64,000 nucleotides of DNA, taken from Schmidtea polychroa. Lineage: Eukaryota. This document shows positions 47,625-53,657 of the stretch, one piece after another (the first letter of the stretch is position 1; the number at the start of each line of letters is the position of its first letter). The DNA lies in assembly GCA_044892525.1 (NCBI GenBank), contig CM097887.1:20398001-20462000 (forward strand), given 5' to 3'. Below the pieces are notes generated by a model. The model was given only the letters and a program-made list of their open reading frames with translations. It had not been told where the DNA came from and made no database searches. The position numbers and the translations under genes were made by a program.

Positions 47625-50600
47625 TTAAAACCCCAACTTACTGGTTCCTATATAATTATTTGAATAAAAATAAGTCTGTTGAGCTTTTCGGTTGGCTACA
47701 AGTTGTAGTATGAGGTTTGTATCTGTAGTTCTCAATACCTCATATGGCCCTTTGAAATTCCGCATTAGTTTTGGTGATAAGCCTTTCTTGTTATAATGAC
47801 TTTCCAACATCACCTGGTCTCCAACCCTTATGTCATGATTCTTGGCTTTCTGTCATGATAATCTTTGGATGCCTCTTGATTATATTTTATACTGAGACCT
47901 GCTCTAGCCCATGCTTCCTGTATTCTTTCCCTCATTTCCATTAGATAATCTTCCTGATCTAAATACCATGTTGCTTTAGGGACAAACAACAGATCTGCTG
48001 CATTTTACTTTGCCTTAGATACATTAGGTAAAATGGTGTTTCACCTGTTCCTTCGTGCACTGCATTTCTATATGCAAATAAACAGGATGGAATGTGGATG
48101 TCCCAGTCCGTTTGCCCTGAATTTACATATGATGCTAACATATTAGCTAAGGTTCCATTAAATCGTTCTACTAGCCCATCCGTCTGTGGGTGATATGGGG
48201 AAGTGTTCAACTTTAGAACTCCGAAATAATCATTTATTCCTTTTAGCAAATTACTCATGAAATCAGCTCCCCGATCCGTTAATAGCTTCGTAGGTACTCC
48301 ATACCTAAAGACAATTTGTTCAACGAAAATTCTAGCTATTGTGTCAGCTTTGTGATTAGGCATCGGGTAAGCTTCTGGCCATTTAGTCAAATAGTCGCAG
48401 AAAACTAAAATGTACTTGTTTCCGCTATTAGATTCTTTGAATGGCCCCAACCCTCCATTGTCGTCATTTCCATAGGTGTAGATGGTACTGGCATCGGCTT
48501 CATTGGTACGTGTGGTTTCTTTCCGGTATTTCTTCTGGTGATACAGATCTTACATGTCTGACACCAGGTTTTAACGTCTTGTTTCATACCGAGCCAAAAA
48601 TATTTTTGTTTTAGCCTCGATAACGTTTTTCTAGATGACAGGTGTCTTCCTAAGGCTCCATCGTGATACTGCAACATGAGTGCTTCACGATATTTCTTAG
48701 GAACCATTATAACATTATCTCTTACATCTGAGTATTTAACTAATCCTTCCTCCAGCACAAACTTGTCTTTATTCTTTTCCCAGTATTTCGTGAATTCTGT
48801 GGGCACGTATTTTGCTTCCAAGGCTTGACGGATAATATTGATTTCTTCGTCAGATTTTTGGGCCTCCATTAAATCAGCTAGCCGGTTGGCTTCTCTGGTC
48901 AGTGTGAAGATAGTCCCTTCGAGACGCCCTTCCTTCACATCTTCTGCTTCTTCCTCCTGGTCCATTCTCGATAAAGCATCTGCATTACCGTTATGGTCTC
49001 CTTTTCTGTAATGGATTTCTATGTCATATGGCTGTAAGATTAATGCCCATCTGACCAGTTTTGATGTATCCATTGTGTGTTTTGTCAGCCACTGTAATGG
49101 TCTATGATCGGTGCACACTATGATCTTTCGACCCCATAGATAAGTCCTAAACTGGGTTATAGCATATACAATTGCTAACGCCTCTGACCTAGCACAGCAC
49201 CTATGCCCCGAGTGCTGGCATCTGTCATAACCAAAATTTGTCTCTCAAAGCCTGGAAATCGCAATATAGGTGACTTGACGAGCTTTTCCTTGAGCATATC
49301 AAATGCTTCCTGCTGTTCTGTTCCCCACACGAACTTGACGTTTTTGCCTTCTAACTGCGTGAGTGGAAAAGCTATAACCGAGAAGTTTCTAATGAATTTT
49401 CTATAGTATCCGACTAGGCCTAAAAACCCTTTGATATGTTTAACGGTTTTAGGCTCCGGGAAATTCTTTACCTTTTCGACATTAGCCGGATCTGGTTTAA
49501 CCACATCTCGAGAGATGATATGGCTAACATATACCACTTCTGGTTCAGCCGATTTACATTTGGTCGGTTTCACTTTCATGTTTGCGTTGATCAACCTCTT
49601 GAATACATCTTCTAAATGTTCCAAGTGTTTTTCCAAATTTCGCGAGAATACTATGACGTCGTCAATGTATACCATCGCATGATATACATCCATGAGCATC
49701 AGATTCATTGCTCTTTGAAACGTGGATGGAGCTCCTGTAAATCCAAATGGCATTACGTTATATTCGTAATGACCCATACTCGTAGAGAACGCTGTTATTG
49801 GTATAGTCTCATCTTTTAACTTGATTTGATAAAATCCCTTTTGGGAGTCCATTACTGAGAAGAACCTAGCGTTTCTCATGCGTCCATAGATATAATTTAA
49901 CAATGGCAATGGATGGCTATCTTTGCATGTTGCTTCGTTAACCATGCGATAGTCGTTACACAATCGTACTGATCCATGCTTCTTGGCCACCACTATCATT
50001 GGCGATTGATATGGTTATTTACTATGCCTGATTATGCCATGTTTTAACATCAGTTTCACCTGTTTATCTACTGATTCCTCCAGACTGAATGGAATTCGGT
50101 ATGATCTCAACTTTATAGGTTTTGTATTGGTGAGGACAATCTCATGTTCCAACAAGTTTGTTTTTCCCAGATCGTATTCATGTTTCGCGAATACCTGGTC
50201 GTATTTCCTCAATAGCATATTTACTTGAATATTTTCCTTTCTGGTTAGCACTTTGCTATTTGCCGTAGGTGCGTCGTAGTACTCAATGTCTGGATCTCTT
50301 TCTTCTGCCTTTACGGTGAGTATCGACCCTTCTCCCGTGGCTAGAGGTTCGTTTTGTTTCCAGATTCTGCCCACTCTGGTGTCTGGATATAAATAAAGTG
50401 GTTTAATGTCCAGATTGGCTACCCTGATTGGTATTCGGCCATTGAATATTAAACCTACGCTATGAGTAACTGGTATGTTGTATTTCTCCGAAAATCTTTA
50501 GTCTGGTTCGAATACAACTTCACCTTCCCAATTATTGCTTGTAGCTACAAAACATTCTGTTTCCGCTCTGGGTAGTATGATAGTTGTATGATCTATATAA

Positions 50601-50990
50601 GCTGTATCATCGTTGTAAAATTTTCTCTTTTTACCTCGTGCTCGGATTAACAAACCAGATGCATAATCGAATACTACTCCTCGTAGTCTTTTTAGGATGT
50701 CCATACCCAATAGACATTCGGCAGGGAGACTTCTCATTACTATGATGTCGTGATGGAGCTCTTGGTCACATAGCTTAATCTGGCAAGATAATGATCCTAT
50801 TACGTTTAATGAGGATCCGTTTGCTCCTGTTAATTTTACTCCTACCGGTTTTAGCGACTGCAATTCATGATGGTTTAACAATTTAGCTTCGATTATGGTA
50901 CCATCTGCTCCTGAGTCTATCACCGCATTCACTGTATGTCGGTTCACTCTTAATTTTATCATTGGCTTTTTATCCAAGTTTACTGGGTTG
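47625..50990 (-). pseudogene. Gypsy pol: protease, RT, RNase H, integrase
   Basis: VIDSGAD (D at 50915-50917); MPFG, YIDD; TDAS, TDHRPL, ADALSR; H-H-C-C finger, LLTDRG, TSPYHPQTDGLVERFN; GPY motif. Confidence 0.97.
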
Positions 50991-51637
50991 TTGACCGTCA
51001 AGATAGTATCTTGCGAGATACCGATTGTATTGGCTCTCGTTTGTTCTGCTTCCAGTAATTTAGGATCACTCAGTTGAGGAATATACTCTTTAAATTTAGC
51101 TTTGATTGACTCTAACGCTTCCTTTGGATAGTGCACTTTAGGTAATTCTGGCAATGTTGAACCTGTCAGATTATAAAATATGGTATCTTCACCGATTTTC
51201 CATTGGTGCCGTCCTGTTCTGAGTGTTGTTTCCCTTGAATGTTCCCACCCCTCGTTTGGTGCGGATGATAAACTCCTCAAAGTTGGCAATTGTACATATC
51301 TTGGACTTCTTTTGAATCTGGATGACCTTATGTCGAATTTTTGGTCGGAACTGTCATATTCTTCTTCTGAGGACTGTCTTTTCACGTAGATTTCCTTTGA
51401 TTGGTCATATGGAGGGAGATATTCCTTAAATCTCGATTTTCTTTGTTGCTGAATCGGTTTTTTGTTGTAGTTCTGTTTTCGTGATTGATTTGGTCTTGAA
51501 GATGTTTCTCGAGAGCCTCCATTACCTCCTCCCTTTGAATTGTTATCGTCCCGATAACTAGAATACTCCTCCATTTCTGTTCCAATTACTTCATGTTTAA
51601 CCAAATGTTTCTGTCTAATTTCTTTAATTTCTTTTCT

Positions 51638-53070
51638 GTGATGTTTGAATAATGCAAACTCTGCACACATGGGACATAATCCTAGTAGCAGTTTCCATGA
51701 CCATCCCCCAATTTTGAATATGCTATATGTTGACATCAGTTGTGTAATTATCAGCTTTAAAATTACAAATATTGCGTAAATTCTTGAACATCCGACGACG
51801 AAAATACCAAAATTGGTAAATCGTCCCCATATTTTCATCATTACGTTCTTTCCTGCTTCTTTATAGTGTTCCGGTCCAAATAATAAATCGTAATCTGGTC
51901 GTATTAAGCTATCATGATAAATTGTTCTTATAATTTCCGTGATACCTCTGTCTCTGATTTGTGGGAATAGCAATGTCCTTCTTGCTTTCTTGATATCGTC
52001 GGGAGTATAAATCCATCCTTTTGCTAATTCGTCTAATGACTTGAATTCCAGATTATCCTTTAATTTAGTTACCTCCAAGGTCTCTACCCGTTGTGTAGAT
52101 GGTTTTCTTTCCGGCAAAGATATCCACATGTCATTTATTTTGTATAATGGTGATATTGCCGGGTTGCATATAGCTAGTTGAGGTTTAGCGCTTTCCTCAA
52201 GTAACTTTCTGGTTACTGGCATAACAAATCCGTCTTGTCTTCCGATATCAATACTAGAGGTGTGTTTTCCTCTCCGATATCTTCCTTCTCTTGTTTGTTG
52301 ATTTTCTTCAACGTTTTTGCTTTATCCCAAACCTTTTCTGGATTCTGGGAGTCCCGATATTTAGTTCCGTTTAATTTTCTAAAAGGAATTTTCTTGAGGA
52401 AAGCCAACTCACAATGATCTCTCATTTGTTCGTAAATTAATGTGGTGGTTCCTGTTTTACAACTACCGAACTTGGCATTACATTGCGGATGTGCCATCAA
52501 TTTTCCTGTGGCCAAATCGAATGTTCCCTCGTATTCTCGTAGTTCCACTAAGTAATCTTCTATGTCTACCACATAGGAAACTAAATTGCTACCGCGAATT
52601 TTCTTTCTACCTTCGCAGGCACCATCTGAGGCAATTGTTCCTCCTCGAGTGATTGTTATTCCCAATGTTTTCCCAATTTCTGCTGAGATTGATACCTCGT
52701 TGTCTATCCTCACACTTCCTTTTCGAAAGGCATCTAAGCAATCTTCGGGCATTATGTTTACCGGTCTTGGTATTAATGTTGCAGATAGAAAAGCAGAATA
52801 GCTATTACTACCGCAATAATATTCAAATGTAGCTCTCTGAATTCTACATTCCTTTATCGTGGTTCTATAAAATTCACTATCTTGGTAGACGTAATATTCT
52901 ACCTTTTCCCCTTGATGAACCTTCCCTGGATACGCTTCTTTGCACTCAATTGCATCTACTAGCGAATATATCCGAGATAGTTTAGGATTTCCACAGTCAA
53001 ATACTGTTAGTGAATTTGATTGTTTTAATATGCCCATCATTACTAGGAACATCAGGATCATGCTATTCAT
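51638..53070 (-). pseudogene. Envelope glycoprotein of chuvirus-G / herpes-gB (class III) type
   Basis: Signal peptide (MNSMILMFLVMMGILKQSNS), then LTVFDC...SLVDAIEC...EC...YYCG...DC...GACEG...C...GSC; after a deletion/frameshift at about 52222, MPVTRKL...LAKGWIY and a TM region ending GWSWKLLLGL. This matches the chuviral G cysteine and motif layout. Confidence 0.8.
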
Positions 53071-53657
53071 GTTTCCTGTGCCTGAACTACCATTATCTAT
53101 GGCTTCTTCCACGACTTCATATTGTTGGTGTATGTGGGAAAAAGAAAATATACATACACGATTATCATACATATCAAGTCTCATTATTCTGCTCAGACCG
53201 TTCCCTCACACACTCCAAATGATCATTCACATATTCCCGCGTATGAGCCCGTGGTGATGTTCCACGTTGGTACTGCTCACACGGGTTGGAAAAAGTTAGC
53301 AGGTGAGCCCCTACCTTAGGACTACTCCTAACCCTTTCTCGGTTCGGGTTCTACGGTGCCTTAGAAGGTCTTACCCATCCTTCACTCATAATTCGGTCCG
53401 ACCCTGGTCCAAAGGGACGACATTTAAGCTTCTACTATATCTTCGGGATCCCTTTCTCATGCAATTCAACCACAGCAAATCATACATACAATTAACACAA
53501 TCAAAGAAAATCGAACAGTTGTATTAGAACGAAACATCAAGATACATTCATCATTATTTACATATATACAAAACATTAAAGATTAGGCATAAGATAATGT
53601 CACATTCTTCAAGTTCGTTCGTGATAGTAGGGGAATCGAGACCCGTGAGGAAATTCG

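Follow-up and report, generated by a model that had tools for sequence, protein, structure and literature searches.

Gag, Env and Pol in one frame: a Ty3/gypsy family of Schmidtea polychroa with a predicted membrane-threaded polyprotein

The window analysed here is a stretch of 64,000 nucleotides from the planarian Schmidtea polychroa (GCA_044892525.1, contig CM097887.1, positions 20,398,001 to 20,462,000), and its minus strand holds a decayed copy of a Ty3/gypsy long terminal repeat (LTR) element that encodes Gag, Env and Pol in one frame. The family of this copy probably specifies a single membrane-threaded Gag-X-Env-Pol polyprotein of ~3,350 codons with an internal signal, X being a region between Gag and Env. 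This reading is carried by the gene order, by the continuity of the frame across copies, by selection on every part and by a herpesvirus glycoprotein B (gB)-like fold modelled for Env.

In the window copy, a Pfam search of the frames matched the Monjiviricetes fusion protein family PF24664 at 53205-52216 (E 4e-21) and at 52321-50501 (E 4.5e-28), the latter with an aspartic protease (PR) in the same frame. The original prediction, made from the window letters, that Env stands ahead of Pol and in frame with PR was borne out, as was its uninterrupted 574-aa open reading frame (ORF), which holds the C-terminal part of Env together with the protease and measures 574 aa from the first Met and 607 aa from stop to stop. 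Reverse transcriptase (RT), RNase H (RH) and integrase (IN) follow in broken frames down to 47683 (Pfam RVT_1, RT_RNaseH, Integrase_H2C2 and rve). RT had been placed directly after PR, which fails for the window copy: two stops (50500-50498 and 50014-50012) and a spacer of ~210 aa lie between, and these stops are common to none of the 26 other copies compared below. A break near 52222, raised earlier as a deletion that might be copy-specific, proved to be a 439-nt deletion at 52229/52228, the extra bases being kept in 38 of the 39 other scored copies. The domain order PR-RT-RH-IN is of gypsy type and among solved structures the aligned family finds its best relative in Ty3 Gag-Pol; a BEL/Pao element with a chuvirus G protein (Anakin type) was ruled out by the gypsy-type Pol and by an Env upstream of PR. 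The window copy stops at 47683, short of the second membrane protein, the ORF2 and the 3' LTR present in sister copies, and retains the 5' LTR side only; because the copy is 3'-truncated, a search of the window for direct repeats brought up no LTR pair.

Upstream, gag with its CCHC knuckles begins at 60421, and the gag of a sister copy gives zf-CCHC and Retrotrans_gag matches in Pfam; gag and X of the window copy are interrupted by stops and frameshifts. This gag was overlooked at first because a solo LTR sits between gag and env. The insert (57432-53123) has TG..CA ends and an ATAT duplication and is missing from sister copies, in whose alignment gag/X (to 57433) directly adjoins env (from about 53122). 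Its genome matches, judged on the best 40 of 2,732 candidates scored, are mostly paired about 26 kb apart, and it is therefore the solo LTR of a ~31-kb element. The feature boundary formerly drawn at 53184 falls inside it. The signal peptide proposed at 53070 does correspond to a signal-like segment (53070-53011), but one that is internal, about 1,030 residues into the Gag-started chain; it appears N-terminal in the window copy because of the 4,310-bp insertion. Likewise, the polyprotein described as Env-PR-RT-RH-IN was right in joining Env to Pol but too short, the whole chain being Gag-X-Env-PR-RT-RH-IN plus a further part.

A DNA search for the family gave 281 candidates, of which the best 40 were scored, all 95-100% identical. 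Of the 39 copies outside the window, 26 were fetched at length, picked by similarity and not by open frames, and form with the window copy the set of 27 used here. With the 27 projected on natural copies, no position from gag to the end of the post-integrase part has a stop as its commonest codon, and shared stops occur at only four positions from gag to RNase H and at one in integrase, each in two copies. The linker from the Env transmembrane (TM) helix to PR has no frameshifts, and 24 of 27 copies carry it without a stop. The stretch from TM through PR is clean in 16 of the 27, and the X-env junction in 15 of the 25 copies covering it. For variants present in at least three copies, dN/dS is 0.01 in gag, 0.09 in X, 0.03 in the Env ectodomain, 0.10 in the linker (N=6, S=16), 0 in PR, 0.01 in RT and 0.13 in the post-integrase ectodomain; shared variants give 0.01-0.13 in all larger regions, whereas changes found in single copies give about 0.25-0.55. 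Purifying selection acts on the linker, which is functional protein. In one copy the start-to-stop span is 10,043 nt; for the family, the chain is ~3,350 aa, the element about 15 kb and each LTR ~1.3-1.5 kb. Paired LTR stretches, found in 14 of the 26 sister copies, are 95.7-100% identical, and the family therefore moved recently.

The fusion of Env to PR was found conserved elsewhere, no stop or frameshift separating the parts across the 27 copies, and it recurs in a second family and in five outside proteins. The second family, about 42% identical in Env, makes up most of the genome matches to PF24664 (best 68 of 2,580 candidates scored), and 12 of the 68 scored are set in frames that run for at least 3,200 aa without a stop. 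One copy read whole carries Gag-Env-PR-RT-RH-IN-signal-ectodomain-TM in 3,334 aa, and by eye its Env agrees almost letter for letter with the printed Env of Smed_errantivirus_2. The X region of the second family gives Pfam matches of ubiquitin-like (E 1e-4) and Bcl-2-like (E 0.005) type, the latter directly before the signal-like segment and with weak PDB matches mostly to Bcl-2. The X region of the window family (window about 58600-57433) gave neither a Bcl-2 nor a ubiquitin match in Pfam and aligns to the second-family region at 25%.

Outside this genome, Env stands ahead of PR/RT in one chain in 5 of the 150 proteins listed by a profile search whose query included RT, most of the 150 being ordinary gypsy Pols; one of the five is labelled as a bacterial protein from a metagenome-assembled genome, which is probably contamination. 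Homologue searches returned two proteins for Env, none for longer fused proteins (a weak search) and none with the post-integrase part. A degenerate Env motif occurs at 26 genome sites; the 20 fetched are mostly decayed, several with env-then-PR order, and none of the 20 has an open frame long enough to judge fusion. A quick RT tree was built from 68 rows, 8 Env-fused and the 60 best-scoring others of 151 extracted, with no named reference sequences. All eight Env-fused rows, the window, the second family and the five outside proteins among them, fall in one 13-row set (SH-aLRT 97). As a separate observation, the outside relative P0017 joins three protease-like domains and C2H2-like fingers to Env and Pol in a single chain.

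A class III, herpes gB-like fold is supported for Env, in agreement with the original prediction. An AlphaFold2 model of a sister-copy ectodomain (9 sequences; predicted local distance difference test, pLDDT, 65.4) returned herpesvirus gB in all top rows listed by Foldseek, the best at E 2.7e-14, with TM-scores of about 0.35-0.40, and PF24664 matches the sister copy at E 8e-87. The ectodomain has 16 Cys, several of them invariant across 9 relatives, and all 7 relatives printed have a signal-like segment ahead of the first conserved [YF]DC, with cleavage-site-like spacing.

Two late-domain motifs had been pointed out in the linker, LPPY and YPKEAL, and both are present at their sites. The first was ruled out as a conserved late domain, [LP]PxY occurring in 1 of 7 TM-PR linkers. 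The second type is kept: YPx1/3L occurs in 4 of 7 linkers versus 0.31 expected from shuffles (p about 8e-5, the linkers being related and not independent), the YP dipeptide in 6 of 7, and in both genome families a YPxnL motif lies about 70 residues ahead of the protease Asp. YPxnL is the consensus bound by ALIX, and by this analogy the motif in the Env tail would be an ALIX-binding late domain.

In sister copies the frame does not end with integrase: by hydropathy, another signal-like segment follows, then ~245 aa and a transmembrane segment. The same layout is found in the second family, in all three outside proteins that reach past integrase, and in a giant element resembling the planarian element Burro. 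A second, predicted membrane protein is thus likely fused after integrase in compact and giant elements alike. Its ectodomain is possibly fibronectin-III (FN3)-like: the pattern L-x-[PA]-x-[TY]-x-Y, picked post hoc, occurs in 4 of 5 compact members (1-2% each by shuffle) and not in the giant element. Two further observations were made nearby. A conserved RYPLR motif after integrase (in L121 and L145 at the end of integrase, and in P0017 and P0026) is invariant in one alignment and resembles foamy-virus chromatin-binding motifs; and the second-family post-integrase tail ends in PPSY.

In 22 of 22 copies this part closes with a TGA stop, and CAA TTA comes next in all 18 copies printed (the L121 sequence reads CAA TTA TGA CAA TTA). 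Soybean SIRE1 is a readthrough element; unlike in it and in TMV-type (tobacco mosaic virus) cases, the window-family stop follows a predicted post-integrase membrane protein. The CAA TTA fits the TMV-type readthrough context CAR-YYA (PMC2194720, in the part of the text available); the chance of such a fit is about 0.003. In frame with the TGA lies ORF2 of ~760 codons, which is under selection; it starts with a hydrophobic stretch, has an RNase T-like middle, and shows synonymous changes only sparsely over its first 70 codons. Atlas likens ORF2 to RNase T-type exonucleases (0.93, 29 of 30 matches), and Pfam gave no exonuclease match in it. No ORF2 was seen in the ~6 kb after the stop of one second-family copy (ORF2-region sequences: L042, L037, L032, L121).

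A mechanism for the single polyprotein can be proposed from these parts. Gag and the X region would be made in the cytosol, and the internal signal would then send the Env ectodomain to the lumen of the endoplasmic reticulum, to be released there by signal peptidase. Transfer would stop at the Env transmembrane helix, so that linker-PR-RT-RH-IN would emerge on the cytosolic side, and the second internal signal after integrase would export a ~250-aa ectodomain anchored by the last helix. Pol might thereby stay tied to the membrane by its two ends until cut loose by the protease, which the clustering of Env trimers would help to dimerise where budding takes place. A frameshift would be unneeded, Gag, Env and Pol being made 1:1:1 unless shorter RNAs add Gag. 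The YPxnL of the Env tail would recruit ALIX/ESCRT for budding, and readthrough of the TGA may reach ORF2. The lumen-then-cytosol topology of the original prediction is supported by the predicted segments, and packaging of Pol via the Env tail is plausible on the same grounds.

Several points weigh against this account. The whole frame is open in none of the 26 fetched copies of the window family, the longest reaching 2,542 and 2,334 aa, and we infer the continuity of the frame across copies and not from any one intact copy. Only Kyte-Doolittle hydropathy and motif shape went into the topology; two hydrophobic stretches lie at the end of Env, and if both cross the membrane the predicted sides flip. 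The ectodomain has a single N-glycosylation sequon, and a 1:1 ratio of Gag to Pol is wasteful, so that shorter RNAs may exist. Five rows of the 13-row RT set have no Env match in their protein. For the post-integrase part, the FN3 hints are weak (Pfam fn3 E 0.23; Atlas FN3 0.90-0.92, with recognition below threshold), and its model (pLDDT 41.7) is too poor for a fold search. As to readthrough, the RNA downstream of the TGA shows no notable fold (z -0.74), and an ATG stands at ORF2 codon 43 in 22 of 22 copies, so that ORF2 need not use readthrough.

LTR elements need excess Gag, and this favours an alternative that we hold unlikely, in which the long frame is the route to Pol only, shorter RNAs, spliced or polyadenylated early, supply most Gag and Env, and the Env tether has little role in packaging Pol. 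In such a scheme an Env-Pol or Env product could begin at the Met at 53070, just ahead of the signal. It is opposed by the protein-level selection on the X region and linker, and by the lack of a stop that would end a separate Env, which keeps the linker and PR unless spliced. RNA contigs of four runs, covering the stretch in part or whole, included no joints with canonical splice ends among those listed and are uninformative on splicing either way.

The 16 Cys with their invariant members, the ectodomain dN/dS of 0.03, the gB fold and the cleavage-site-like spacing before [YF]DC in all seven relatives make a second alternative quite improbable, namely that a Bcl-2-like domain just upstream has the first hydrophobic segment for its tail anchor. 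Env would then not be routinely translocated, the particles would be intracellular, and Env would have another or a vestigial role. Bcl-2 proteins do end in a tail anchor, the weakly matched Bcl-2-like region of the second family adjoins the segment, and the single sequon points the same way. That the env-PR fusion is an accident of the window copy, heavily broken as it is by a nested LTR, deletions and stops, is refuted by the linker (24 of 27 copies open, no frameshift), the second family and the five outside proteins, and deserves next to no credence.

Building on the single membrane-threaded polyprotein, a larger and tentative picture, in which we place less than even confidence, is of enveloped flatworm retroviruses organised like flaviviruses: one polyprotein crossing the membrane four times and yielding two surface proteins, a gB-type fusogen and a post-integrase FN3-like protein for attachment or triggering. 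In this picture both ends of Pol would be stapled to the membrane, and the signal for budding would lie on the Env tail instead of on Gag. Because herpes gB needs partner glycoproteins, the post-integrase protein would be well placed as the missing partner, for receptor binding or triggering, of the gB-type Envs of retroelements.

The features are collected in Table 1. The primer-binding site recurs in most fetched copies and is a candidate tRNA-Trp type. The solo LTR has a second partial copy (89%) at window 14047-15818 and contains a 209-aa frame (54287-53658) without a Pfam match.

Table 1. Features of the window copy in reading order, followed by parts placed on other sequences
Feature	Position	Strand	Basis
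5' LTR remnant	60521..61563, ends approximate	-	blastn against LTRs of other copies, 77-90%
Primer-binding site	60501..60517	-	sequence; shared by most fetched copies
gag (capsid, CCHC knuckles) and ~700-aa X region	57433..60421	-	94.5% to other copies
Nested 4,310-bp solo LTR of giant (~31 kb, Burro-like) element	53123..57432	-	splits gag/X from env
Internal signal-like segment ahead of Env	53011..53070	-	hydropathy
Env ectodomain, N-terminal part (gB/chuvirus-G type)	52229..53010	-	PF24664; sister-copy model matches herpes gB
Copy-specific 439-nt deletion site in Env	52228..52229	-	comparison with other copies
Env C-terminal part	51647..52228	-	PF24664; hydropathy
Predicted Env transmembrane helix	51805-51746	-	hydropathy
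Second, shorter hydrophobic stretch at Env end	51691-51647	-	hydropathy
Env tail/linker to protease (LPPY 51418-51407, YPKEAL 51130-51113)	50966..51646	-	open in 24/27 copies; motif test
Aspartic protease, DSGA at 50917	50636..50965	-	PF13975, E 1e-12
PR-RT spacer with two stops private to window copy	50012..50635	-	frames; copy comparison
RT, RNase H, integrase, broken	47683..50011	-	Pfam; alignment to sister copies
Predicted post-integrase signal, ectodomain and TM	L121:4181-5125, L145:2302-3456, L148; also P0017, P0026, P0112	- (L entries)	
ORF2	L121:1916-4180	-	
Second-family X region (ubiquitin-like, Bcl-2-like)	L146:1-2367, L057:3451-4182	-	Pfam

Among known systems, the planarian Burro/GYPSM1 comes closest in design. 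As described in its text section, env lies in frame between gag and PR, is related to mononegavirus fusion proteins and is followed by RT-RH-IN in one ORF that also has Gag with CCHC knuckles and ubiquitin-like and BCL2-like parts (PMC6431247; Arkhipova & Yushenova 2019). The window family shares the in-frame env between gag and PR. Weak ubiquitin and Bcl-2 matches before Env were seen in the second family only. Unlike Burro, which is given there as >30 kb with 4,873 aa (PMC6431247), the window family measures about 15 kb and ~3,350 aa and is without an ankyrin-like extension after integrase; in a 10-kb stretch of one giant element, integrase followed by ankyrin-like text was seen by eye, as described for Burro. 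The window family works like Burro and is not a Burro. No dUTPase match was found in the window family, and its PR-RT spacer would be dUTPase-like only by analogy to Burro. The Burro text section of PMC6431247 makes no mention of membrane topology, a post-integrase membrane protein or readthrough.

Errantiviruses of GAG-ENV-POL order with an HSV/gB-type Env are described from nematodes, bryozoans and flatworms, Smed_errantivirus_1-6 among them, in the main text of Chary & Hayashi (eLife, PMC13524379). The window family shares their order, Env class and host group and is none of Smed_errantivirus_1-6 as printed there; the nearest, Smed_errantivirus_4, is by eye about two-thirds identical over ~90 residues. 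That main text does not mention the terms fused, polyprotein, single-ORF, in-frame, fibronectin or readthrough. Unlike the window family, nematode endogenous retroviruses (NERVs) belong to another host phylum. They reportedly have a continuous gag-env-pro-pol ORF, an unconfirmed account attributed to Sacco et al. 2022. Env before Pol in NERVs is cited in the main text of PMC13524379. The Atlas element is described, in the available part of its source, as a single Gag-Pol-Env polyprotein of another order (10.64898/2026.03.22.711591), and ORF2 of the window family is RNase T-like as are the DEDD-exonuclease ORF3s of rotifer LTR elements in the part of PMC5408684 available. In the related-element literature covered, no description was found of a post-integrase membrane protein, a double tether or a readthrough context; PMC13524379 and PMC6431247 were covered as text, and a single ORF or a post-integrase protein may be shown in their figures or in the ORF files of the former.

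In conclusion, an env in frame between gag and pol (PMC6431247) and the Gag-Env-Pol order with a gB-type Env (PMC13524379) are already published, and the locus adds one family to them. What it contributes beyond these is selection on the Env-PR linker and a predicted post-integrase membrane protein common to compact and giant elements. With many near-identical copies in one genome, topology, processing and cell-to-cell spread become approachable in a laboratory animal.

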